Positions 5,591 to 22,022 of a stretch of DNA of 24,000 bases are shown one piece after another. The notes under the pieces are model-generated. The model did not search any database. It was not told where the DNA came from and was given only the letters and a program-made list of their open reading frames with translations. The DNA is from Nanobdellota archaeon (GTDB lineage Archaea; Nanobdellota; Nanobdellia; Woesearchaeales; JAHWHD01). Each line of letters begins with the position of its first letter. Positions within the stretch are counted from its first letter, which is position 1. The stretch is taken from the NCBI GenBank assembly GCA_034722435.1, contig JAYENX010000024.1, positions 17,494-41,493 of the forward strand, written 5' to 3'. Both the position numbers and the translations under genes were made by a program.

Positions 5591-7438
5591 TTAAGTCTGT
5601 GCCCCAACCACTGATCCATCAGTGTCAGATGTAGGTACACTATTTTTTATTCTTAAATCGCCTGTTGAATCTATCCAAATGTGATAATTCCCAAGTATTA
5701 GTGTTACATTTTCATTTACACTATCTTCTCTCCTAACTCTAAACTTGTTTGTCCCATCATGAAGTATAGCTATACTATTTTGCACATCTGCTACTTTTTG
5801 GTCAATAACAATTGCTGGTTTTGTTGTTGATTCTGAATCAATATATAATGAATTTCCATTCCCATTCTGGTCAATGAATATTCCGCTACCTGTGCCATCT
5901 TGTTGAATCTTTAAAGCATTTTGATCGTCACCAGAGTTATCATTAACTACATTCATTAAAGCTCCCGCTGTGTTCGTACTATCCAAATCTCTATAAAATA
6001 AATTAGTTCCATCTGAACTTGTTTGATCACGATTTAATCTTACCACTTCTGCATTTCCATTTCTTGCAAGAATCATCATAGTATTTGTAGAGTCTGAATT
6101 TTCAATAGAAAATGTTGTGCCACCAACTTCTTCTGAGTCAATACGCAATGCGGTGCCATTCCCATTTTGGTCAAGAAATATTCCATCACCTGTACCATCT
6201 TGCTTTACTCCGAGTGCATTGCCTGTAGCGCCAGTATTATCTACTGAAATGCCAACTAATCCGTCAATTCCTGCACCTGTAAACGATCCACTTGCACTAT
6301 CAGAATAAAATGTTGCTGCATTACCCGTTGTTAATGAATTTCCTTGAATTACCAATCCACCCGATTTATAAAATGAATCACCAGTTGTTGCATCGGTGTC
6401 AATATATACCGATTTGTCATTTTCGTCAGGATAAATTGATATTGGATTATCAAATACATACTTACCCGCACCACTATATGTCATAATGTCAGATGTTGAA
6501 TTGTATGTCATCTCAGCAACTCCTGTCAATAATTCACCATTTGCTTGATTAACTGTCGATATTAATGCTACTGATGCTTGATCACTTTCTTTATCTGTAA
6601 TTGCGAAAGTTCCCTCAAACAGTGCAAATCTATTTGGTATAATTGGCGACTTGTCGTCTGAATCGAAACTGAGCATTGGATATTCATAATAATTATTATC
6701 TGCACCACCAGTTATCAATGAAAAATTAATTGGCATTGTTGTAATATTGATTAATCCTGTATTATCAATGTAAACATCTCCATCAACTTCAAGTTTTGCT
6801 GCTGCTATTCCTGTTCCTATCTTAACATTTCCTGATGGCATAATCCTCATTGCTTGAGTGCCATTTATGTGCATTATATACTTTGCTGCATGCATCCATA
6901 GATTATTATAAGGCACATCATCAGTTGGATCTCTGAAAAATAATGAAAATACATTATTATTTGAATTAAATCCACCACCCATTGCACCATCATAAGTCCC
7001 TCGTTGCTCTCCCAACCAGAATCCATCACCAGATGTTTTTCTTACATGCAATGGAGCTAGAGGGTTATCAGTTCCTATTCCTACCCATCCGCTAGGCGTT
7101 ATTTTCATTATTTGATCCGATGTAGAATTGTAGAATCTGTATCGATTTGCATAAAATTGCATTTCCTTCATTGTATTATCAATATCCCTTGACATAATAG
7201 CAGCAACACCATTATTTTGATTTAGTGCTATTGCAAGTCCGGCAGGGGTTGTTCCGTTTGCAAAGAACCCAATATTTGTTTTTGAGTCATAAGCTGTAGT
7301 GTATAGCTTATATTCTGTGTTTCCTTCTATCTTTGATCCTATTCCTATTTCAGAATCTCCAATATATGTATAAGCTGTTACACTTAAACATGCAAGTATC
7401 GTTATAATTAGTATCATTGCTGCTTTTGTAATTTTCAT
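5591..7438 (-). CDS. Tail-fibre-like / receptor-binding-type secreted protein, 615 aa
   Basis: It has a signal peptide (MKITKAAMILIITILACLSVTA). It carries two copies of the fibre-type motif PSG[NW]V[GK]IGT...L[HE]V (residues ~115-134 and ~201-224). It also has two copies of QDGTGxGIFxDQNGNGxxLxIDSE. The C-terminus is WIDSTGDLRIKNSVPTSDTDGSVVGAQT. From memory these motifs recur in phage and archaeal-virus fibre proteins. Confidence 0.9.
   Translation of the reverse strand: MKITKAAMILIITILACLSVTAYTYIGDSEIGIGSKIEGNTEYKLYTTAYDSKTNIGFFANGTTPAGLAIALNQNNGVAAIMSRDIDNTMKEMQFYANRYRFYNSTSDQIMKITPSGWVGIGTDNPLAPLHVRKTSGDGFWLGEQRGTYDGAMGGGFNSNNNVFSLFFRDPTDDVPYNNLWMHAAKYIMHINGTQAMRIMPSGNVKIGTGIAAAKLEVDGDVYIDNTGLINITTMPINFSLITGGADNNYYEYPMLSFDSDDKSPIIPNRFALFEGTFAITDKESDQASVALISTVNQANGELLTGVAEMTYNSTSDIMTYSGAGKYVFDNPISIYPDENDKSVYIDTDATTGDSFYKSGGLVIQGNSLTTGNAATFYSDSASGSFTGAGIDGLVGISVDNTGATGNALGVKQDGTGDGIFLDQNGNGTALRIDSEEVGGTTFSIENSDSTNTMMILARNGNAEVVRLNRDQTSSDGTNLFYRDLDSTNTAGALMNVVNDNSGDDQNALKIQQDGTGSGIFIDQNGNGNSLYIDSESTTKPAIVIDQKVADVQNSIAILHDGTNKFRVRREDSVNENVTLILGNYHIWIDSTGDLRIKNSVPTSDTDGSVVGAQT
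5831..6217 (-). repeat. Internal duplication in the fibre-like gene (units at 5831-5920 and 6128-6217)
   Basis: The protein units ALGVKQDGTGDGIFLDQNGNGTALRIDSEE and ALKIQQDGTGSGIFIDQNGNGNSLYIDSES lie ~100 aa apart. The similarity is also visible at DNA level (ccattcccatt.tggtcaa..aatattcc...cctgt.ccatcttg). Confidence 0.8.
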
Positions 7439-7443
7439 TGTTG

Positions 7444-8043
7444 TTACCCCTCCATTTGTGATAATAGTACTAATCTACCATTATACATATTGTCTCTTGT
7501 ATATATTTCTATCTGATCTTGTGAACACTGAATTAAAAACAATGATACTCCATTTTTGAAGTGCCATTTTGCTGCTTCTGTGTCACCCATCCATATTCTA
7601 TCTCTACATGGACCATTAGGATGATTATGAATTAATGCCATTTCATTGCATTTTCCTATTGATACAAAATTACTTTCTCCCTCATGTAAACTTTCAATCT
7701 TGTCTAAATATATTGTTGCGTTTCCTTTTGTCCAATCGTCAACATCTGTTTCATGCGAGAAATCTCCCTTTATGCATGCAGCATATTCTGAATCTAAATG
7801 CTCGTTCCATTGATTCCTTAATTCATCTGCTAATCTATCACGCATAATTATCTTTATATTTGGCGAATACATTGCTCCTGTAACATTATCATCATTACTT
7901 AAAAAATCATAATTAAATGGTATATATACAACCCTTGTTTCTATCCATCCCATCTGATTCAAAAGACAAAATCCCAAAATAATTATTCCACATACTATCA
8001 AGAAAAATAGTATGAAATAATCAAATTTTGTCAATCTTGTCAT
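7444..8043 (-). CDS. N-terminally membrane-anchored protein, 199 aa, with JAB/MPN(RadC)-like HNHPNG motif (tentative metalloprotease fold)
   Basis: A TM helix is present (FDYFILFFLIVCGIIILGFCLL). EYAACIKG lies ~53 residues upstream of ALIHNHPNGPCRDRIWMGD. The His-x-His-Pro and upstream Glu-x-x-x-Cys pattern resembles JAMM/RadC. The canonical Ser-x-x-Asp spacing is not satisfied. There are ATGA overlaps on both sides. Confidence 0.85.
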   Translation of the reverse strand: MTRLTKFDYFILFFLIVCGIIILGFCLLNQMGWIETRVVYIPFNYDFLSNDDNVTGAMYSPNIKIIMRDRLADELRNQWNEHLDSEYAACIKGDFSHETDVDDWTKGNATIYLDKIESLHEGESNFVSIGKCNEMALIHNHPNGPCRDRIWMGDTEAAKWHFKNGVSLFLIQCSQDQIEIYTRDNMYNGRLVLLSQMEG

Positions 8044-10295
8044 TTCTTTTTCCTCATGAATATAAAATACGATGACAAAGCAAACAACAGTATCATTGTT
8101 GCTCCATATATCATATAATTGTTAATATTTTTATCTCCGACTGAATAGTCTTGATTTTCAATTATTTGTCTTAATTGTGCAACTAATTCTTTTTCTCTTT
8201 CTAGTGAGTCTGCATACTCAGCAATAAGTGCTTCTTTTTCTTCCAATGTTATTCTTAAGTTTGCAACAATTTCTGTAGTATCTGCAAGATTCACTTCCAA
8301 TTCTCTTATTAATTGCTTCATTTCGTTATTTGTCAATTTTAAATCACTAATTAATCTTGACATCTCTTCATTACTAAGCTCGAGCTGCATAATTAATTCT
8401 GCTTGTTGTGCAATATTCAGATTAAGGTTTCGTATTAACTCTGCTTGTTCTTCGACTTCTAATTCTAGTTCAGAAATCAAATCCGCTTGCTTTCCGATGT
8501 TATCATACAACTCTTCAATTATCCTTGCTTGTTCTGCAAGTGTTATCTCCATTCCTTGTATAATATTTGCTTGTTCTGATACCTTTGTTGATAATGTTGA
8601 TATAATAACTGCATCTTCTGCTATTGTAAGATTTAATTGTGAAATAATTTCACCTTGCTTTCCAAATGACACTTCCATTTCTGCAATTAATTCAGCTTGT
8701 CTCTCATTTTCTACCTCAAGTTGACTTATTAGTGCAGCTTTTATTGCCAAATTATTTGTAAGCTGATTAATCAAATCTGCTTGTTCAGCGATATTTTGCG
8801 TCAACTCTTCAATGTATATTGCTTGTTGCTCTACTGTTTGTGAAAACTCTTGTATCATTGTTGCTTGTTCTGCAATAGTTAATTCTAATTCTTCCATAAT
8901 TGCTACTTGATTAGCAATATTTTGTGTCAAACCTGCAATTATTTGAGCTTGCTCATCAACTCTAGTTGATAATTGTTCAATTAATGATGCCTGCTCTTGT
9001 ACCTCTAAATTCATTGCAGCAATTATTGCTCCCTGCTCTTCAAGTGTTATCTCTAGATTTGATATTATAATAGCCTGCTCATCTGTATTTGTTGTCAACT
9101 CTTGTATCAACATTGCTTGTTCTTCAATATTTAATTCAAGTTGAGATATAATTTCTGCTTGCTCTTCTTTAATTAATGTTAATTGATTAATTATTGCTGC
9201 TTTTTCTGCTATTGTTCCCTCAAGTCTATTTATTGCTTCAATTTTACTTGCAATGTCTGTATTTAGTACATCTAGATACCCTCTAATGTAGTCTTGACAT
9301 ATGAGATAATTACTTATTCCTGCTTGTTTACATATTTCTGGCAATTCTGGATTTATACATTGATGTTCAATAATTACAGCCGCATCGTCACATACTAATT
9401 GCTCACATATCGCTTCTTGTTGTGATTTTTTTGAGCACACTTCTTCTTCTTGACAATCTGCATTCTTTGAACATTCAATATTACTTTTGTATAGAGGCTT
9501 TTCGTCCCATTCTGTTCCTGCTGCTGTCCACGCCCAATCTCTACCATTTGAATCGAAATCAAAACATACCATGTGTAGATGGTCAATTGTTGCATAATCT
9601 GTAAGATCTAGAGTATGATCTTTATTTGCTGATATTTTTTTATGATAATTTCTACATCCACTTTTATCACAATTTGCGTGATTCCAAAATGAATTCCAAT
9701 CACCTACATTTTGTGTATAAATATATGCCTTATCTCCTTTACACTTGTAGTAAAAAGGATATTTTGATGATACGTATGATTTTCCATTATATTCGTCATA
9801 ATACAAAGGTCCATAGTAGTTTTTTGCTACTGCTTTTGCAGATCCATAAGATGCCTCAGAAAAATAGCACCCTTCATAATTTCCATATGCATCGCAATTC
9901 CCATACTGTGTTTCTTCTTCATAATCATCCTCATCTTCTAACTCACATTTATCGAAATATGTTGTGTATCCTTCATTTCTGCATGCATCACGTCCTTCAT
10001 CTGTATAACATATCTGGTATGACCCATCTGCGCAAGGTAATGATCCGGGACTACTACCACCATATATGTATACTGTCTCACCCTCATCCAATATACTATC
10101 AACTTGAGACGCAGAGCATGTGAATTTATCTGCATATGGTCCGTTTGGATCTGTACAATATCTACCTGTAGTTTCTAATGCTTCCCAATTCCAAAATTCC
10201 CACCAATTCGGTCTGTCATATACTGTTTCTGCTTGTACAGATACCAACATTATAAAAATTAATGACAAAATTGCAATCAGTCTTAGCATTTTCAT
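8040..10295 (-). CDS. Anchored stalk protein, 751 aa: signal peptide, ~320-aa Cys/aromatic-rich head, ~364-aa coiled coil of 14-residue repeats, C-terminal TM anchor
   Basis: The signal peptide is MKMLRLIAILSLIFIMLVSVQA/E. There are about 20 Cys in residues 47-333. Residues 344-707 are strictly 14-periodic. The C-terminus is NYMIYGATMILLFALSSYFIFMRKKK. Confidence 0.92.
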   Translation of the reverse strand: MKMLRLIAILSLIFIMLVSVQAETVYDRPNWWEFWNWEALETTGRYCTDPNGPYADKFTCSASQVDSILDEGETVYIYGGSSPGSLPCADGSYQICYTDEGRDACRNEGYTTYFDKCELEDEDDYEEETQYGNCDAYGNYEGCYFSEASYGSAKAVAKNYYGPLYYDEYNGKSYVSSKYPFYYKCKGDKAYIYTQNVGDWNSFWNHANCDKSGCRNYHKKISANKDHTLDLTDYATIDHLHMVCFDFDSNGRDWAWTAAGTEWDEKPLYKSNIECSKNADCQEEEVCSKKSQQEAICEQLVCDDAAVIIEHQCINPELPEICKQAGISNYLICQDYIRGYLDVLNTDIASKIEAINRLEGTIAEKAAIINQLTLIKEEQAEIISQLELNIEEQAMLIQELTTNTDEQAIIISNLEITLEEQGAIIAAMNLEVQEQASLIEQLSTRVDEQAQIIAGLTQNIANQVAIMEELELTIAEQATMIQEFSQTVEQQAIYIEELTQNIAEQADLINQLTNNLAIKAALISQLEVENERQAELIAEMEVSFGKQGEIISQLNLTIAEDAVIISTLSTKVSEQANIIQGMEITLAEQARIIEELYDNIGKQADLISELELEVEEQAELIRNLNLNIAQQAELIMQLELSNEEMSRLISDLKLTNNEMKQLIRELEVNLADTTEIVANLRITLEEKEALIAEYADSLEREKELVAQLRQIIENQDYSVGDKNINNYMIYGATMILLFALSSYFIFMRKKK
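8175..9266 (-). repeat. 26 tandem 42-nt (14-codon) diverged coding repeats, consensus roughly L-x-L-x-I-x-E-Q-A-x-L-I-x-x
   Basis: I hand-parsed residues 344-707 into consecutive 14-mers with no indel: LNTDIASKIEAINR, LEGTIAEKAAIINQ, LTLIKEEQAEIISQ, LELNIEEQAMLIQE, ... LRITLEEKEALIAE, YADSLEREKELVAQ. The register was checked against the DNA (L344 = 9266..9264). Confidence 0.9.
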
Positions 10296-10612
10296 TCTGT
10301 TCCTACACCCGTTTGTACATTCTCACTTGTTCCTTGACTATCTGCCCTGTAATTTTCATCAAATTCATAGTCAATTTCTTGACCATTTATGCATGCTATA
10401 TAGTTTTGGCTATGATATTCTACTGAGCAATCACTATATCCATCACATACATATGCGCACTTTTCCATTGATTCGCACAATATAATATTTTTACAACTAA
10501 TTTTATCGTCTTCGTTTATTTGTCCCGTAATATCAAAATACTGATTAGCTGTAAAAATAGCTAAAATTGCTAATAGTGCTATAACTCCCAGTATTATTGC
10601 ATTTTTCTTCAT
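10292..10612 (-). CDS. Small secreted Cys-rich protein (106 aa from internal ATG)
   Basis: I trimmed the track ORF 10292..10663 to the ATG at 10612. That ATG forms an ATGA overlap with the upstream stop and yields a clean signal-type N-terminus (MKKNAIILGVIALLAILAIFTA). The short acidic mature part has 6 Cys. Confidence 0.75.
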   Translation of the reverse strand: MKKNAIILGVIALLAILAIFTANQYFDITGQINEDDKISCKNIILCESMEKCAYVCDGYSDCSVEYHSQNYIACINGQEIDYEFDENYRADSQGTSENVQTGVGTE

Positions 10613-11715
10613 ACAAATAACCCCGTGAAGAATGATACTATTGCATTCCACCACTTTGCCCAAAATGGCAACACTTCTGGATCTGTCTCAGGTATGTTTT
10701 CTTCTGGTTCGCCAATAAAATCTCTCTTAATAAATTCAGCAGCCTTTTCACATAATGTTAAATCTTCATAAAATGTTTGATCTATCGCATCGCTTTGTAA
10801 TATTTGTACACATTTTGCGTCTGATAACACATCATTTTCGTATACTCTTTCTACGATATATCCACTTAGTTGCTCTGGTGGGCTATCTGGTGGCTCATCT
10901 GGCACTTCTGGTGGGTTTTCAGGTGGCTCAGGTGGTGTATCTGGTGGATCGTTTGGATCCACTTCACTTTCTGGTTCTGCACAGTTATGCCATCCTGTCT
11001 TTGCTGTGCTTGTTTCTGTTCCTTCTATTACATATCCCGGATCGCATACAGTTCTATATTCCTGTAAGACTCTCTGACTACATAATGGTGCATCACCGTA
11101 TTTAGTACATGCTCTCTGCTGTAAATCTGCATGATATGCTGTGTCGGTTGTTATCCATCTATCACAAAAATCAGTAGGACAATCCGTTATTCCAACATTG
11201 AAGTTTGTACATTCATCTCCAATTAATGATCCTGATGTTTCCCTGATTGTGTAACATAATTTGTATTCTCCTGATGTTATTGGTGCATTAAACTCGCTTA
11301 CAGTATTCAAATTTACTGACTTTCCATATGAACTACATAGATCTGGTCCGAATAGACTACATCCTAATGCATAACTTAGCGGATATCTGAAATCCCAACT
11401 ATTCAACACCTGATTATTTCTGTCATAAAGTCTCATCGTTGCCTCTTTTATTCCATCAAACTGAGGAATTGATATAACCAAATCAACATCTACTAGTTCG
11501 CCCGGATCTGGGTTAGATTCTGATAAAAATATTGCAAACATTGATCCTTCTATATTTCCCTTTGACACCTTTGTACATACTACTTCTTCATTTTCTCCAA
11601 GTTCACAGTGCTCTCCTACAGTTGAAAATGTACCTGCTAGATATAATGTTGATATTATTGCAGTTAATAATAATATGCCAATTAAAATCATTGTTTTGTC
11701 AATTTTTTTCATCAT
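10609..11715 (-). CDS. Cys-rich membrane-anchored protein, 368 aa, with Pro-rich linker and hydrophobic C-terminus
   Basis: The N-terminal leader MMKKIDKTMILIGILLLTAIISTLYLAGTFSTVG is paralogous to that of the 572-aa protein. It has 14 Cys and the linker DPNDPPDTPPEPPENPPEVPDEPPDSPPE. The C-terminus is LPFWAKWWNAIVSFFTGLFV. Confidence 0.9.
   Translation of the reverse strand: MMKKIDKTMILIGILLLTAIISTLYLAGTFSTVGEHCELGENEEVVCTKVSKGNIEGSMFAIFLSESNPDPGELVDVDLVISIPQFDGIKEATMRLYDRNNQVLNSWDFRYPLSYALGCSLFGPDLCSSYGKSVNLNTVSEFNAPITSGEYKLCYTIRETSGSLIGDECTNFNVGITDCPTDFCDRWITTDTAYHADLQQRACTKYGDAPLCSQRVLQEYRTVCDPGYVIEGTETSTAKTGWHNCAEPESEVDPNDPPDTPPEPPENPPEVPDEPPDSPPEQLSGYIVERVYENDVLSDAKCVQILQSDAIDQTFYEDLTLCEKAAEFIKRDFIGEPEENIPETDPEVLPFWAKWWNAIVSFFTGLFV
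10870..10977 (-). repeat. Low-complexity Pro/Glu/Asp linker coding region (degenerate TCTGGTGG-type repeats on the plus strand)
   Basis: Residues 247-282 are EPESEVDPNDPPDTPPEPPENPPEVPDEPPDSPPEQ. The plus strand shows reiterated ctggtgg/caggtgg units. Confidence 0.8.
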
Positions 11716-12557
11716 ACATCACCCGATAATATTATCCCTATCTTATTTAGTGCTCCTCCAAATATGACCAAAAGTATGAGTGTAATTATCCAACCAATTT
11801 GAAAAAAGTTTTGTGTAATTACTCTATATGCCTCTCCAACTCCATACACTGCTAGATTATTTCCAACATGTGCACCAAAACTAAATGTTGTAGTTATTGC
11901 TACATATTTTATCATATTAGCCCACTGATCCCCTTTGACTATAACAATCATAAGTGCTCTAAATATTATGGCTGCAATAATAAAAGCTGTGAATGCTAAT
12001 TTTCCAATATGGAATATTGCAAATGTTGTTCCTGCAATTGTTGCGATAATTGCTATTTGTAACCATATATTTGTGAATATTTTGAATTTTTTTCCTAACA
12101 AATCTAGAAGCAATTTTACAACGATTGGTATTGTGAACATCCAGAAAAATTCTTCTGCTATTGGTATGAGAAATGACGTAGATCCAAACTCTAACATTTT
12201 CGGCATTTGTCCTGAGACTGATGTTGCTAACTGATTTTGTGATATTGCAAATACTGATTTTTCGTATCCGCCTGTGAAAAATACCATTCCACCCCATGCA
12301 ACCAAACCAATCACAAATGATAAACATGCATCACTCCAACCACCCATATATCTTATTACGTTTTGTTTGAAAATTGTCTCACCTAATATTATAAGGATTG
12401 GTGCTGACAATAACATTGTTCCAAATATCAATAAATAGAATCCTGCTCTTATTGAATTGTTTTCGTGACCCCAGATACCCACCCAGATGAAGACAGCTAA
12501 TGCTATTACAAATAATGAAGTTATGAATGCTATTCCGCCTATGCCTTCATCTTTCAC
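11712..12557 (-). CDS. CPBP-family (CAAX protease/Abi-type) intramembrane glutamic metalloprotease, 281 aa
   Basis: Polytopic membrane protein with the three family motifs in the right order and spacing. They are IPIAEEFFW (EE at residues 135-136, nt 12150-12155), FAIFH (H183) and GAHVGNN (H230...N234). The Arg of the EExxxR motif is replaced by Trp. The start is GTG with GGTGAT 5 nt upstream. Confidence 0.85.
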   Translation of the reverse strand: MKDEGIGGIAFITSLFVIALAVFIWVGIWGHENNSIRAGFYLLIFGTMLLSAPILIILGETIFKQNVIRYMGGWSDACLSFVIGLVAWGGMVFFTGGYEKSVFAISQNQLATSVSGQMPKMLEFGSTSFLIPIAEEFFWMFTIPIVVKLLLDLLGKKFKIFTNIWLQIAIIATIAGTTFAIFHIGKLAFTAFIIAAIIFRALMIVIVKGDQWANMIKYVAITTTFSFGAHVGNNLAVYGVGEAYRVITQNFFQIGWIITLILLVIFGGALNKIGIILSGDV

Positions 12558-12571
12558 CTACAATCACCAAT

Positions 12572-12605
12572 AAAAAATAAAAAAATGACTGAGCTAATTA
12601 GCTCA
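12572..12605 (-). terminator. Perfect 16-bp palindrome TGAGCTAATTAGCTCA (12590-12605) containing the TAA stop, followed on the minus strand by T7 and T6 runs
   Basis: Read directly. It lies between the 362-aa gene and the CPBP gene, so it would act as a partial terminator or attenuator inside the operon. Confidence 0.5.
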
Positions 12606-13686
12606 AGTCTAATGTAAATGACTGTAGTGTATAGATAGCTGCTGGACTTGAAGCATCTGTCACAGAACTGTATCTTACATCGTATCCGCTTGTAGCACGT
12701 GCTGCACCAATTGTAGCGAAAGCAATTACAATATCAGATGTTGGATTTACTCCATCAACTGCTTCTACTTCAAGCTCGATAGATACATCATCATCTTCAA
12801 TTAATGCTGATGCTTGATCTGCCTCAAGTTTGTATACATATTCATATGATGAATATGATGTGCTTTCCTTTTTGTCTACAAGATCAAATACAGATAACTT
12901 ACTACCTTCAAATTTAACAGTTGGCTCTTGGAAATCTGATGTGCTTGCATCAATTAAGATGTATAATCCAAGATCTGCTACATCACCATCAGATATTGTT
13001 GCCTCAGCTTCGATATTGAAGTCAATATCTCCTGATGCTCCAACTGCTGTTGCTGTTGTATTACCTGTTGTAGATTTGAACGTTGCTCCTGTGGTTTCAA
13101 AGTCAGTTGCATCATTATCAGAGCCATCATATACCCAACCTGATTGGTCGTTATCATATACTCTAATTTTGATTGGCGAATGTTGCTTACTTACAAGCTC
13201 AAGGTTTAAACTAGGACCTGTTGCTGTAAATTTAACCGCTCTTCCACCTTCAACTACTGTAGCATCTCCTGCACCTACTGACATAATCATAGCTGAATCT
13301 CCTGATGATCCATCTGCTGATACTTGTCTGTAAACATAGTCGCTTCCACAATCTAGTGTAGCTGTTCCGGCTGTTGTATCTGTAATTGTTGATTTTAGAC
13401 TTTCTTGTCCGTTAACAACTTTGTACAAATAACCTGTGTTGTCATATGTTTCAATTCCTGTCGTATTTAGTCCGTTATTGACGGTTAATGTCAATGCAGT
13501 ATCTAAATCAGTTGGACATCCTGCCACTGATCCAGAGCCTTGACTTCCACCACCATTTGATGCTCCAATAGCACTAAATGGTCCAATTCCGGCAAAATAC
13601 GCAAGACCTGTCATTACTAGCAAGGCTACTAAGATTATGCCTACTAGCATAACTACCATGTTCTTTGTTGCGTCTTTTGTTCTCAT
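12598..13686 (-). CDS. Abundant-type structural protein candidate, 362 aa, N-terminal membrane anchor/leader, Thr/Ser/Gly/Asp/Ala/Val-rich
   Basis: Track ORF with the strongest SD in the window (GGAGG 6 nt upstream of the ATG). Its GC content is visibly higher and it is poorer in Lys/Asn/Ile than all neighbours. It is the first gene of the operon, with its own long leader upstream and a terminator-like element downstream. The N-terminus is MRTKDATKNMVVMLVGIILVALLVMTGLAYFAGIGPFSAIG. The structural role is inferred. Confidence 0.9.
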   Translation of the reverse strand: MRTKDATKNMVVMLVGIILVALLVMTGLAYFAGIGPFSAIGASNGGGSQGSGSVAGCPTDLDTALTLTVNNGLNTTGIETYDNTGYLYKVVNGQESLKSTITDTTAGTATLDCGSDYVYRQVSADGSSGDSAMIMSVGAGDATVVEGGRAVKFTATGPSLNLELVSKQHSPIKIRVYDNDQSGWVYDGSDNDATDFETTGATFKSTTGNTTATAVGASGDIDFNIEAEATISDGDVADLGLYILIDASTSDFQEPTVKFEGSKLSVFDLVDKKESTSYSSYEYVYKLEADQASALIEDDDVSIELEVEAVDGVNPTSDIVIAFATIGAARATSGYDVRYSSVTDASSPAAIYTLQSFTLDLS

Positions 13687-13875: not shown

Positions 13876-14445
13876 ATGAAAGGTATCATGTTTTTTGGAA
13901 AAATATTTGCGAGTAAGCTGCCTTTACTCAAAGTTGTGTTTATTCCTGCTATTGCGTGGGGAATTGTTATTATTGGTGTTCTAAACACATTATCTAAGAA
14001 GGGTTTTGGCGAAGCGATGATTGAGCTTGTTCAAAAATCATTAGCTTCCGAGTACACAATAAATCAAAATGTCACTCTTGCGATACAAAATCCTGAATTA
14101 TTTGGATTTATGCATTTTTTGGAAATTGTTTCTGCTGTCCTTATATTTTACTATCTAGTGAAGTGGATTACAAAAGCACAAATTGGTGATACTGGTGCAC
14201 AAGCATGGATGGGAGCTGCTCGATGGTCCATCTTAATTGTCATAATACTTGAAATAGCTGTAATATCAGTTACTAATCTAGATTTACAATTCTGGAATTA
14301 TTTTATTCCAATAAAAGATTCATTCTGGTATTTACTTATGAATTTCTATCATGTTGTTGATGCAACACCTATACTAACTTTTTTTGCGTCAAGTCCAAAT
14401 GTTGCTGAGATAAATCAATCAATTAATTTTACTGATTCTTTCTAA
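13876..14445 (+). CDS. Polytopic membrane protein, 189 aa, unknown function
   Basis: This is the only long ORF in this interval on either strand. It has four to five hydrophobic segments and is divergent from the structural operon. Confidence 0.8.
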   Translation: MKGIMFFGKIFASKLPLLKVVFIPAIAWGIVIIGVLNTLSKKGFGEAMIELVQKSLASEYTINQNVTLAIQNPELFGFMHFLEIVSAVLIFYYLVKWITKAQIGDTGAQAWMGAARWSILIVIILEIAVISVTNLDLQFWNYFIPIKDSFWYLLMNFYHVVDATPILTFFASSPNVAEINQSINFTDSF

Positions 14446-16547: not shown

Positions 16548-17465
16548 CTACATTTTCCCAATATCGTAATCTCCAAATTTACTATATGCTTTCATACCAC
16601 GATATGGAGACACCTCTATATAAATCTCTGATGTCTTAACACTTTCATGACCTAAATATGCACTAATTGAAAGTATATCCGCACCAGCATCAGCCATATG
16701 CGTAGCTTTTGTATGACGCATACAATGAGGTGAAACATCTCTTTGCAGTATCCTTTTTGTTGTTGTTTTAACTATTTCGTATAATCTGTGTCCTTTGTCA
16801 ACCCTTGCCTTTCCATCCCCTCTATTAAATTGAAAAAGACTAACATTTTTCGTTTGAATTTTACCTTCGTATATTTTATAGATTAATTTCCTCGATGTTT
16901 TGTTCAGATAAACCTCTCTAACTTTATTTCCCTTTCCAACAACTCTAATTTTGGCATATATTCCAGATTTAATTAGCTTCTTTTCTTCTGATTTTGTCCA
17001 TCTAATATCTTTAAATTTTATTCCTATCACTTCTGAACGTCTACATGCAGTATCATACAAAACACAAAATAATGCTTTCGTTTCTAAATCCTTTATCTTC
17101 TCAAACAAATCCCTCAATTCATCTCTACTCAATATTTTATTTTGCAACATTTTTCTTGATTTCAACGCATTTGTATACCTAGTTTTTGGTGGCTTTATGT
17201 GATCTATCAGGTCTGATTCATAATTATTTACAGTTTGAAGATACCATAGGTATGCCTTTATTGCAGAGTAGTGTATCATATTAGACTTTTTTCTAATTAG
17301 TTCATTGCAAACCAAAATTATCTCTTTTTTTGATTTACACATATGTATTTTCTCAATATCATTGTGCAAGAATCCAACGTATCTTTCTATTGTAGAAGGT
17401 GCGTATTTCTCGCCATCCGGCTTTTTAGCTTTCTGCATGAACTTTATGAAATTATTTATCTTCAC
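16548..17465 (-). CDS. int: Tyrosine recombinase / phage-type integrase (XerC/D-like), 305 aa, apparently intact
   Basis: The N-terminal core-binding-type region is YAPSTIERYVGFL...AIKAYLWYL. Catalytic motifs are in order: ACRRSEV (Arg), PHCMRHTKATH (HxxR), LGHESVKTSEIYIEV (His...Tyr nucleophile). The track start is a GTG at 17465, and an in-frame ATG lies at 17438. Confidence 0.95.
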   Translation of the reverse strand: MKINNFIKFMQKAKKPDGEKYAPSTIERYVGFLHNDIEKIHMCKSKKEIILVCNELIRKKSNMIHYSAIKAYLWYLQTVNNYESDLIDHIKPPKTRYTNALKSRKMLQNKILSRDELRDLFEKIKDLETKALFCVLYDTACRRSEVIGIKFKDIRWTKSEEKKLIKSGIYAKIRVVGKGNKVREVYLNKTSRKLIYKIYEGKIQTKNVSLFQFNRGDGKARVDKGHRLYEIVKTTTKRILQRDVSPHCMRHTKATHMADAGADILSISAYLGHESVKTSEIYIEVSPYRGMKAYSKFGDYDIGKM

Positions 17466-20303: not shown

Positions 20304-22022
20304 CTAAATGCTAAATAAATTCATTATCCATTTCACAATCATTGGAATAATTAAAAACAACGACACTACAACAAAAACTACGATTATTCCTTTTTGCCAA
20401 TCCTTTAGCTTTGTTTTTGATAAATATGCTAATGTCATAACACCTCCAATAATTGCTATGATTATTGCTGCAATTAGTAAAGGCTTGTTAAATTGTTCAC
20501 CATTACCAGAATTCTCTCCTCCTTTATTATTTTTACATACTGGATTACCATTGTTTGGTTCACAATATTGATCTACTCCACATGTTTTTATTACTGAAGT
20601 ATTCGTTCCTTCGTTGTTACACTGTTTTATTACTGCTAGTCCACCAATTTCAGAACAATACTTTCTATTTTTTTGACATACCTGTAGTGGATCTGCACAT
20701 GTGGCTATCTTAATTTTTTCCTCTTCACCTGCTGTTTCAAATGTTATCTCACATTCTCCTATTTCTTTTTGTGAAACATCGGAACTCAATTCAAGACTAA
20801 CACTATCTTCCTCATTAGCCTCCAGACTAAATTGAATTGACCTTGTTACTTCAAATTTGTCCCCACATTTTCCATATGCATTCCATGTACCTGCTTCCGT
20901 TCCTATATTTTTTACTGTTACGATAATCTCCCCTTTATCTCCGGTTTTGAAGCATTCACTTTCTCCATTAATAATTTTTAGGTCTGGTTTTGGTGTGTAT
21001 ATACCCAATTTATCAGCCTGTACAAACAATGTTATTGATGGGTTTTGTAGAGGATATTCAATATCCTTTCTTATAACAGCGTTATTTAATGATGATTTTT
21101 CATCTATAGTTCCAAATGTTTGTCTTGTTTTTGCATAGTTTGAATCTGCATTAATATCTCTGACAAATTCTTTTATTCCTTGCTCACTATAATCGTATGA
21201 ATTTCTGTTATATGAAAATTGATTTATTCCTGTTGGTGTCCATGCCTTGTATGCATTTGCAAAGTCTTCATATCTATCCTTACTTATTATACTCCACTGA
21301 CCATCATACATTGCTGTATATGGGGTTTCTGTAGAATAAGGACAGCTTTTCCCTAGATCATAGTTTCCGTTGTAAATAGCATACGTATACCTACCCATTC
21401 CTTGATTACTCTCTTCACTATCAATAGATATACTATCTGTACTCCCATCAGCATTTATGTTAATTGTAGCCTTTGTCCTTATATCTGCCCTGTCAAAAAA
21501 TCCCACTCCATTACGCTCTACTACATATGTTCCAACACATCTTGTTAATCCAACCTTTCTACTAGGTCCTTCTACATCCAACACAGATACACCACACCTT
21601 TCTGCAATTTGGTTGTACCACCAATTTTTATTGTTAAAATCCCCAGTTAAACAATTCCATGCACAAACGTCTAATTTTATTATCTCTTGTGCTTCAGTAT
21701 TTCTTGTTATTGGATATACACATTCTTGATTATCATATCTCACATTAATTGTTAGATCTCTTTGTGTTGTTTCTGAGCCTGTTTTATCGGCAATATCTTC
21801 TGATGTCACCGTTCCATAAGCCGATTGACTCAATCCACCTTGTACAATTGTCATAACCCATGCAGGTCCATTAAGATATGGTATGCTTGATTTTAATTCC
21901 ACCTCATCAAGAGATATTATTGTTCCTCCAATGATTGAAAATGTCCCTGTATACAACAATGCGGTTAATATTACAATAATTGCCAGAATTCCAATGATTA
22001 TGATGTTTTTGTTTAGTTTCAT
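20304..22022 (-). CDS. Cys-rich surface protein, 572 aa, N-terminal anchor/leader and two C-terminal TM segments
   Basis: The leader MKLNKNIIIIGILAIIVILTALLYTGTFSIIGG is paralogous to that of the 368-aa protein. It has 16 Cys, including 7 within the C-terminal ~55 residues of the ectodomain. It contains a CARDB/Ig-like-looking stretch GEIIVTVKNIGTEAGTW. The C-terminus carries LLIAAIIIAIIGGVMTLAYL and IIVVFVVVSLFLIIPMIV. Confidence 0.9.
   Translation of the reverse strand: MKLNKNIIIIGILAIIVILTALLYTGTFSIIGGTIISLDEVELKSSIPYLNGPAWVMTIVQGGLSQSAYGTVTSEDIADKTGSETTQRDLTINVRYDNQECVYPITRNTEAQEIIKLDVCAWNCLTGDFNNKNWWYNQIAERCGVSVLDVEGPSRKVGLTRCVGTYVVERNGVGFFDRADIRTKATININADGSTDSISIDSEESNQGMGRYTYAIYNGNYDLGKSCPYSTETPYTAMYDGQWSIISKDRYEDFANAYKAWTPTGINQFSYNRNSYDYSEQGIKEFVRDINADSNYAKTRQTFGTIDEKSSLNNAVIRKDIEYPLQNPSITLFVQADKLGIYTPKPDLKIINGESECFKTGDKGEIIVTVKNIGTEAGTWNAYGKCGDKFEVTRSIQFSLEANEEDSVSLELSSDVSQKEIGECEITFETAGEEEKIKIATCADPLQVCQKNRKYCSEIGGLAVIKQCNNEGTNTSVIKTCGVDQYCEPNNGNPVCKNNKGGENSGNGEQFNKPLLIAAIIIAIIGGVMTLAYLSKTKLKDWQKGIIVVFVVVSLFLIIPMIVKWIMNLFSI

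Follow-up and report, generated by a model that had tools for sequence, protein, structure and literature searches.

Proteases of the CPBP family are abundant in prokaryotes, and very few of them have known substrates. In the closest described system, myxosortase, the catalytic residues of MrtX, as those of MmRce1, are located on transmembrane (TM) helices TM4, TM5, and TM7, with TM4-TM7 constituting the CPBP domain, and a motif at the outer end of the C-terminal helix of surface proteins is cut (PMC11980579). For MrtJ (JDVT-CTERM), a two-gene neighborhood of enzyme and target has been described, and myxosortase (2025) is regarded by its authors as the first prokaryotic CPBP protease shown to sort surface proteins (PMC11980579). 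A further precedent is MroQ, a CPBP/Abi peptidase of Staphylococcus aureus, in which the conserved EE and FxxxH motifs are required for maturation of AgrD (bioRxiv 10.1101/516906). Here, a stretch of 24,000 nucleotides (nt) from a Nanoarchaeota metagenome-assembled genome (MAG; contig JAYENX010000024.1), termed the window below, was analyzed. The window belongs to an integrative mobile element or provirus, in which a CPBP/Rce1-like protein of 281 amino acids (aa) is encoded among surface proteins that share an N-terminal leader. The analysis indicates that a dedicated leader/protease pair is plausible.

In its design the proposed pair resembles the myxosortase system. Myxosortase likewise belongs to the CPBP glutamic intramembrane proteases, its EE being on TM4, its H on TM5, and its HxxxN on TM7. 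For MrtX and MrtJ, the sorting proteases of MYXO-CTERM and JDVT-CTERM, the signal includes a single membrane helix with a short motif at its outer end, several targets carry one signal, and the enzyme gene can adjoin its target. The signal of myxosortase is C-terminal, with an invariant lipidated Cys and a terminal basic cluster, whereas that in the window is N-terminal, mirrored in order, and devoid of Cys. In the 281-aa enzyme, furthermore, unlike in myxosortase, the R of EExxxR is absent and the sequence has diverged too far for a direct match in Pfam; its cleavage activity is only proposed, and its context is an archaeal mobile element rather than a bacterial chromosome. An analogy with exosortase and archaeosortase had been drawn in the original prediction; the idea of one signal on several unrelated proteins is retained, while myxosortase, itself a CPBP enzyme, provides the closer precedent. 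Rce1 and MmRce1 (PF02517) have the same catalytic order E, H, H, N and the same eight-helix architecture with TM4, TM5, and TM7 as the 281-aa protein. However, Rce1 removes the three residues that follow a prenylated Cys at a C-terminus in the cytosol and no CAAX box is found in the window system, and the structural match of the 281-aa model to solved CPBP structures is not significant in Foldseek. As with MroQ, the proposed pair joins a CPBP enzyme and a membrane-associated precursor; the substrate of MroQ is a small quorum-sensing peptide precursor whose gene does not lie beside that of the enzyme, in a bacterium, whereas the carriers in the window are large surface proteins. In the tapA-sipW-tasA operon of Bacillus subtilis, a leader-processing enzyme, SipW, is encoded among its few secreted structural substrates (TasA and TapA), other proteins being served by general peptidases. 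SipW is a serine signal peptidase I homologue that acts on ordinary-type signal peptides, and its protease class is unrelated to that of the CPBP candidate studied here.

Nearly all genes of the window lie on the minus strand, the guanine-cytosine content (GC) is ~0.33, and a XerC/D-type tyrosine integrase is encoded. By its sequence, the 572-aa protein is judged to be a distant Fsx1 homologue, that is, a HAP2/GCS1-type class II fusogen, and not an equivalog. It matches the NCBIfam model NF053506 (Fsx1) with E 1.9e-29 over residues 35-530 (profile positions 3-519/610; 102 bits vs. an equivalog cutoff of 650) and the Pfam family HAP2-GCS1 (PF10699) with E 3e-6 (26.5 bits vs. a cutoff of 27.4); its relatives are P0003-P0005. 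Since this protein is a distant Fsx1 fusexin, the window probably represents part of a fusexin-carrying integrative element. Fsx1 genes have been found in integrated mobile elements with XerC/D, HerA, and VirB4-type genes (Moi et al. 2022, PMC9259645). Those elements and the window have in common an Fsx1 homologue together with a tyrosine integrase of the XerC/D type; the window derives from a low-GC Nanoarchaeota MAG and not from a haloarchaeon. Among the relatives of the present element, a DUF87/HerA-VirB4-like ATPase is encoded in loci L007 and L022 and a D5-type primase in L024. Four proteins form the conserved core of the family: a small multi-pass membrane protein, a tandem immunoglobulin (Ig)-like surface protein of 362 aa, the CPBP/Rce1-like protease of 281 aa, and a secreted, Cys-rich protein of 368 aa.

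The leader was originally proposed from the N-termini of the 368-, 572-, and 362-aa proteins, and these N-termini, as well as their coordinates, match the window sequence. The spacing between IGIL and GTFS, said to be identical in the 368- and 572-aa proteins, is exactly 12 residues in both. In the six-frame translation of the window, the pattern G.FS..G occurs three times, in precisely these three proteins, and in each of them it lies where the N-terminal membrane helix reaches the outer face; after shuffling of residues the mean was 0.15 matches and the maximum 2, with 0/2000 trials reaching 3. The mature parts of the three carriers are unrelated to each other. It can be observed that the two closest leaders, those of the 368- and 572-aa proteins, are identical at 12/27 positions in protein and at 49/81 nt (60%) in DNA, with synonymous differences at conserved Gly, Ile, and Leu codons. 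These differences imply that the likeness is held at the protein level, and a recent duplication of leader DNA is ruled out. All parts of a tripartite signal are present in mirrored order at the N-terminus, namely a K-rich start, a helix of ~20-25 residues, and G-x-[F/L]-S-x-x-[G/S]. A class III (prepilin/archaellin or pilin-type) signal was considered and rejected, because the [K/R]-[G/A] site is absent, the residues before the helix being K-T, K-N, and K-N in the window leaders, and because in the 362-aa protein the helix is followed by a linker, unlike in pilins. The other exported proteins of the window have ordinary sites, as had been claimed: ..VQA↓E in the 751-aa, ..AQA↓A in the 551-aa, ..VTA↓Y in the 615-aa, and ..VSA↓M in the 144-aa protein (arrows mark the sites). 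The 106-aa Cys-rich protein gave only a marginal match (E 0.21) to a leader profile built from other loci.

Related loci were obtained from three sources: an exact look-up of proteins related to the 281-aa protein (L006, L007/8), a pattern scan of metagenome contigs (L009-L021), and a look-up of 362-family homologues (L022-L027). Many of these elements encode several proteins of one design, in which a Lys-rich start and a long helix are followed by G-x-[F/L]-S-[T/I/V/A]-[I/T/V]-[G/S]; three carriers were counted in each of the window, L007, and L012, and four in each of L018 and L024. Giant Laminin_G adhesins and other secreted proteins of the same loci bear ordinary ..V-x-A↓ signal peptides. 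When a profile was built from non-window leaders only, the three window proteins ranked at the top of the six-frame translation (E 2.3e-6, 2.5e-6, and 1.5e-5), with ordinary signal-peptide proteins of the window at E > 2 and one antisense false positive at E 1.5e-4. Leave-one-locus-out scans gave E 1.8e-5, 4.4e-5, and 1e-5 for the 362-, 368-, and 572-aa proteins, respectively, and also recovered carriers in L007, L012/13, L014, L018, and L019. Measured from the last charged residue of the N-terminus to the site, the leaders span 21-31 residues (median 25, n=18) and ordinary signal peptides 16-22 (median 18, n=16; p 1e-6), a comparison that is descriptive because the sites were marked by hand. 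With these spans, the leaders do not show the short core of an ordinary Sec (type I) signal peptide. Long hydrophobic cores usually give signal anchors and not substrates of signal peptidase I. The claim that the leader is a distinct class is thus upheld by its recovery with a profile from other loci and by its longer span: the sequences support a distinct recurring class, apparently longer than ordinary signal peptides. Moreover, some homologues of the 368 family carry an ordinary signal peptide and, 20-50 residues further on, an amphipathic Trp helix; a site of the G-x-L-S-T type then follows this helix, 20-40 residues after the signal peptide, examples being NLWDKIVSIFSPGALSTSSG in L007 and TVWDRVGDFFSDSFTTVG. 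This recurrence suggests that the site is read beside a membrane-bound helix and separately from the signal peptidase site, and the leader-type site seems to be tied to a membrane-associated helix of either kind.

The position of the leader in the fusexin is also informative. In the 572-aa protein the leader borders directly on the stretch TIISLDEV.., where the conserved residues of Fsx1 begin, and in four aligned Fsx1 relatives it ends in hydrophobic-hydrophobic-Gly directly before the first conserved residues of the ectodomain. Of the two Fsx1-like proteins encoded in locus L007, one has an ordinary signal peptide (NF053506, E 1.5e-14) and the other the long leader (E 1.3e-6). The Fsx1 sequences in the available part of the published work fall into the same two N-terminal classes, an ordinary signal peptide or a long-helix leader (PMC9259645). 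As given there, the crystallized and characterized Fsx1 has an ordinary ..VTSA↓D signal peptide, and the long-helix leader is present in PME_1.1 (..LVSFGAFKLPFSVINSG↓FSTLS), PSM_1.1, and AcL_1.2 (PMC9259645). In the available portions of its text and supplements, there is no CPBP/CAAX gene and no remark on two N-terminal classes (PMC9259645). In the literature, no description of this leader or of a link between CPBP proteins and fusexin elements was found.

The 281-aa protein contains EE at residues 135-136, FxxxH at 179-183, and HxxxN at 230-234. A word-indexed homologue search returned only the protein itself, and a full HMMER search yielded 126 relatives of ~270-300 aa. In an alignment of 104 of them, with 15-40% identity to the 281-aa protein, E135, F179, H183, H230, and N234 show no variation, E136 is conserved in at least 90% of the sequences, and F199-R200 on TM6 is nearly invariant. 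Conservation of the CPBP motif residues in homologues had been set as a test, and it was found throughout this alignment. The Pfam family PF02517 (Rce1-like) is matched by 13/104 relatives (best E 1.7e-6) and is the sole Pfam family matched by more than one member. One relative passes the Pfam threshold: that in L026, 30% identical to the 281-aa protein (E 8e-32), scores 24.4 bits against a gathering cutoff of 22.4, in a match that begins at the EE motif, reaches HxxxN, and takes in positions 4-92 of the 93 in the profile. With hhalign, EE and FxxxH fall in register with a classical CPBP protein, weakly (E 0.008, probability 5%), and no similarity to the classical CPBP protein of L002 was detected by BLASTP. 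The positional analogue in L022 keeps E, FxxxH, and HxxxN at a similarity to the 281-aa protein that is not significant. An AlphaFold2 (AF2) model of high confidence (predicted local distance difference test, pLDDT, 94.6) has 8 TM helices, of which 120-155 (TM4) holds EE, 164-182 (TM5) holds F179 with H183 at its end, and 224-238 (TM7) holds H230 and N234. A sequence-profile search of the PDB with this protein gave nothing. According to the positive-inside rule, both termini are cytoplasmic and H183 is located at the outer end of TM5. From these results, the 281-aa protein is predicted with considerable confidence to be a divergent, catalytically intact CPBP-type enzyme.

The genes of the proposed pair are closely linked. 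A 362-family gene directly precedes the CPBP-like gene in 17/17 related loci with upstream sequence. Conversely, the reverse search from 362-family homologues found a CPBP-type gene (~276-283 aa) immediately downstream in 3/3 long contigs, one of which is the very divergent protease of L022, located in a high-GC element. In the window, L012, L018, L024, and L026, the gene downstream of the CPBP-like gene encodes a leader carrier and overlaps the end of the CPBP-like gene at its stop codon. In the window, the start codon of the 368-aa gene shares 4 nt with the stop of the CPBP-like gene (11712-11715), and the 368- and 106-aa genes are joined likewise, the stop codon of the former and the ATG of the latter overlapping in ATGA (10609-10612); these four-base ATGA-type overlaps suggest translational coupling of the module. 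Loci L002-L004 present a different arrangement, in which a classical PF02517 CPBP protein (164 aa) is encoded directly upstream of a secreted protein with a leader-type N-terminus (..ISTLHFAGLLTLG..), together with a 25%-identical Fsx1 that begins ..LLAGTFFYF..PMAIGFS↓TLS. Since that CPBP protein is unrelated to the 281-aa protein by BLASTP, CPBP-type genes appear to have been recruited at least twice beside fusexin-associated leader-type proteins. No match was obtained when genome contigs were scanned for Fsx1 and the CPBP-like family, the viral contig collections scanned contained no relative of the element family, and a phage collection gave no match for the 281- or 362-aa protein. As regards the proposed check on co-occurrence of leader and CPBP gene, leader-bearing genes and the protease gene are present together in every related locus, starting from either gene, all of these cases belong to related elements, and the genome and viral scans were empty.

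Two of the carriers can be described further. The 362-aa protein, with 23 homologues, is modeled by AF2 (pLDDT 84) as a TM helix at 9-31, a disordered G/S-rich stretch at 28-54, and beta domains. In Foldseek, its top matches are the Gram-positive shaft pilins SpaA, BcpA, SpaD, and RrgB (E 4e-8 to 1e-5). A double-jelly-roll capsid protein was ruled out, as the fold is tandem Ig-like. In the BFVD, the best structural match to the 362-aa protein is an unnamed 309-aa viral protein, A0A5Q2WAX2 (E 3.6e-10, TM-score 0.49/0.56). The label “structural proteins” originally given to the carriers could not be verified: one of them is homologous to the Fsx1 fusogen, and another is a surface protein with tandem Ig-like domains. 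The Cys-rich 368-aa protein ends in a Trp-rich amphipathic tail (..FWxxIWNWIxxLFxx, then stop), and in each of 7 loci a single Cys-rich protein terminates in such a tail. The pattern, which was defined after these sequences had been seen, has 7 matches in 143,000 six-frame residues, and 7/7 lie within 4 residues of a stop codon. The tail may serve as a membrane anchor at the C-terminus or constitute a second signal.

Considered together, the process in question would begin with insertion of the leader in an N-in/C-out orientation as a signal anchor, which, by its length and according to signal-anchor rules, would be poorly handled by the host signal peptidase I. The CPBP-like glutamic protease of the element would then recognize helix and motif in the membrane and cut at the outer boundary, releasing or maturing the Ig-like protein, the Cys-rich protein, and the fusexin. 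That the 281-aa enzyme cleaves the leaders, the explanation favored here, is a serious possibility that falls a little short of being probable. What the sequences and the model show is a class of leaders, a CPBP-type set of residues in the corresponding fold, and close linkage of the genes; that the leaders are cut, where, and by which enzyme is our inference. A more extensive proposal, rather unlikely as a whole, is an N-terminal sorting system in which a CPBP-type “leader sortase” of fusexin-bearing DPANN elements or viruses would cut the mirrored tripartite signal, mature the Ig-like surface protein, and free the N-terminus of Fsx1, thereby priming it for fusion. Several observations weigh against cleavage by this enzyme. 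Although the CPBP assignment made originally is in keeping with EE, FxxxH, and HxxxN, the R of EExxxR is absent, with M140 in its place, and the 281-aa protein itself matches no family of Pfam (E <= 0.1), NCBIfam, or PHROG. Foldseek against the PDB gave no significant match to its model, the only CPBP-related entry being SpdC at rank 17 (TM-score 0.35). In L006, L009, L010, L014, L016, and L021, about half of the loci, the motif of the 362-family protein is degenerate (..LGQGST.., ..ASVTG..); there the long helix is kept and the catalytic residues of the enzyme are intact, yet the leader profile misses the protein. The Fsx1 of L007 with an ordinary signal peptide implies that the fusexin fold does not need the leader. 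Moreover, all co-occurrence lies within one syntenic element family and is not phylogenetically independent, so the linkage is not an independent co-occurrence test.

The leaders may instead be Sec signal peptides cut by the host signal peptidase I, or uncleaved anchors, similar to each other through common constraints of membrane insertion or assembly. The CPBP-like protein would then have another role, as do many Abi/CPBP proteins of bacteria, for instance in immunity or superinfection exclusion, in regulation, or in scaffolding. This alternative has an appreciable chance of being correct, although we consider it on balance doubtful. The motif is compatible with the -3/-1 rule of signal peptidase I (small residues, ..S-x-[I/V/T]-G↓), its weak conservation in half of the 362-family fits the same view, and CPBP/Abi proteins with non-proteolytic or immunity roles are documented. 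A retained anchor would suit the 362-aa protein, where the 25-residue disordered linker after the helix is stalk-like and no other membrane anchor is present. In the available part of Moi et al., the N-termini of Fsx1 are likewise treated as ordinary signal peptides (PMC9259645). On the other hand, the catalytic residues are invariant in the 104 diverged relatives, whereas non-catalytic CPBP proteins such as SpdC are reported to be inactive. The hydrophobic span of the leaders exceeds that of the ordinary signal peptides in these loci by 7 residues, and the motif is common to unrelated proteins of one element and kept despite synonymous change. For Fsx1, furthermore, an anchor retained at the start of the ectodomain would be expected to tether both ends of a class II fusogen. 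It is improbable that the enzyme processes the Trp-rich C-terminal tail of the Cys-rich 368-family protein and not the leaders. The tail does occur on the gene immediately downstream of the CPBP-like gene in 6/7 loci, often with overlapping stop and start codons, and the CPBP enzymes considered here whose cleavage sites are described, such as Rce1 and myxosortase, cut C-terminal signals (PMC11980579). However, the tail contains no Cys and lacks the architecture of motif, TM helix, and basic cluster of CAAX or MYXO-CTERM, and in L006, L009, L014, L016, and L022 the 368 family is missing downstream although the enzyme and the 362-family gene persist; the pattern itself, as stated above, was framed with the sequences in view. 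A chance or compositional resemblance of hydrophobic N-termini, with fortuitous EE, FxxxH, and HxxxN motifs, is very improbable and effectively refuted. Short motifs can recur in low-complexity hydrophobic sequence, and the antisense false positive of the leader profile is of that kind of evidence; against this stand the shuffled sequences, none of which reached three matches, the profile from outside the window with exactly the three window carriers as its top matches, the invariance of the motif residues, and the family member above the Pfam threshold.

Table 1. Coordinates and sites of the leader carriers, the protease candidate, and other features in the window and the related loci.
Feature	Locus	Coordinates	Strand	Remark
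368-aa open reading frame (ORF)	window	10609-11715	-	N-terminus MMKKIDKTMILIGILLLTAIISTLYLAGTFSTVGE
572-aa ORF	window	20304-22022	-	N-terminus MKLNKNIIIIGILAIIVILTALLYTGTFSIIGG
362-aa ORF	window	12598-13686	-	N-terminal hydrophobic segment runs into ...GLAYFAGIGPFSAIGA
Leader of 362-aa protein, residues 1-42	window	13561-13686	-	K/R-rich start, long hydrophobic helix, then ..YFAGIGPFSAIGA
Leader of 368-aa Cys-rich protein, residues 1-34	window	11614-11715	-	MMKKIDKTMILIGILLLTAIISTLYLAGTFSTVG
Leader of 572-aa Fsx1-like protein, residues 1-33	window	21924-22022	-	MKLNKNIIIIGILAIIVILTALLYTGTFSIIGG
Body of 362-aa protein	window	12598-13560	-	G/S-rich linker, then tandem Ig-like beta domains
Body of 572-aa Fsx1 homologue	window	20304-21923	-	C-terminal TM helices
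Trp-rich amphipathic C-terminal tail of 368-aa protein	window	10612-10668	-	PFWAKWWNAIVSFFTGLFV, then stop
CPBP/Rce1-like intramembrane glutamic protease candidate, 281 aa	window	11712-12557	-	GTG start
Motif codons E135-E136	window	12150-12155	-	281-aa protein
Motif codon F179	window	12021-12023	-	281-aa protein
Motif codon H183	window	12009-12011	-	281-aa protein
Motif codon H230	window	11868-11870	-	281-aa protein
Motif codon N234	window	11856-11858	-	281-aa protein
106-aa Cys-rich protein	window	10292-10612	-	weak possible fourth leader carrier, MKKNAIILGVIALLAILAIFTANQYFDITGQ
189-aa multi-pass membrane protein	window	13876-14445	+	neighbor of 362-family/CPBP-like pair
Tyrosine integrase, XerC/D-type	window	16548-17465		
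751-aa secreted protein	window	8040-10295	-	
199-aa N-terminally anchored protein	window	7444-8043	-	
615-aa secreted protein	window	5591-7438	-	
Leader-type site examples	L007			FFSGSNSLSIIGS, LFATGSLSTTGQG, YFAGQFGLSTISSG
Leader-type site examples	L012			LFFTGSLSTILGE, TGALSTIGT, FNGSFSTTQP
Leader-type site examples	L018			YYTGVFSTIGSE, SYGTLSISGS
Leader-type site examples	L024			YFGGVFSIAVG, PSGTFSAVTS, GSMLFSVTGT, AGAGPFASTE
Two Fsx1-like proteins	L007	2667-4484; 11956-13734		
Trp-tail protein; also ordinary signal peptide, amphipathic Trp helix, leader-type site	L007	10906-11940		e.g. NLWDKIVSIFSPGALSTSSG
Trp-tail protein; also ordinary signal peptide, amphipathic Trp helix, leader-type site	L011	1600-2751		
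Trp-tail protein	L018	5371-6297		
Trp-tail protein	L020	817-2115		
Trp-tail protein	L024	12032-13372		
Trp-tail protein	L026	8640-9800		
Ordinary signal peptide, amphipathic Trp helix, leader-type site	L010	8031-8398		
Ordinary signal peptide, amphipathic Trp helix, leader-type site	L019	1756-2388		
Ordinary signal peptide, amphipathic Trp helix, leader-type site	L021	2221-2739		
High-GC relative of the module	L022	15890-21086		GC ~0.60

Several further genes accompany the module. In most of the related loci, a protein of the 189-aa type is encoded beside the 362-family/CPBP-like pair, on one strand or the other; the 189-aa protein of the window is 29% identical to its positional counterpart in L006 (E 7e-10), and relatives with an “AAEYTIN” motif (~185 aa) adjoin the pair in L009, L010, L012, L014, L016, L018, and L024. 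The 751-aa secreted protein has a Cys-rich head, coiled-coil repeats of ~11 residues (“EQAxIIxxL”), and a C-terminal membrane anchor, and it looks like a stalk or fiber. In the 199-aa protein, the sequence “ALIHNHPNGPCRD” is reminiscent of a JAB/RadC-type metal site; with its HNHPNG motif, this protein would be a second protease candidate in the operon. It matched no Pfam family and no PDB entry by sequence or structure. The 615-aa secreted protein has a weak match to a tail-fiber PHROG (E 7.7e-7) and a precomputed Pfam assignment, PF26986 (Cap_depo), which hints at a receptor-binding or depolymerase function. The relative of the module in L022 is embedded in DNA of GC 0.70 that encodes MlaD, MlaE, an ABC ATPase, and Uma2, all of them bacterial-looking genes, and one 362-family homologue is labeled Candidatus Fermentibacteria. 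The element family may not be confined to archaea, or the L022 and Fermentibacteria cases may be artefacts of binning or assembly.

The conserved four-gene surface module marks a family of uncultured elements. If the proposed pair is real, an N-terminal counterpart of the described sorting enzymes, encoded beside its targets, would provide a second, easily tested system of CPBP enzyme and substrate. The catalogue of prokaryotic sorting signals would also gain a new class, N-terminal, free of Cys, mirrored in order, served by a CPBP protease, and carried by an archaeal mobile element. Furthermore, since one of the carriers is Fsx1, the pair could reveal how archaeal class II-type fusogens are matured or primed, a step that is central to the possible spread of these mobile elements by cell fusion.

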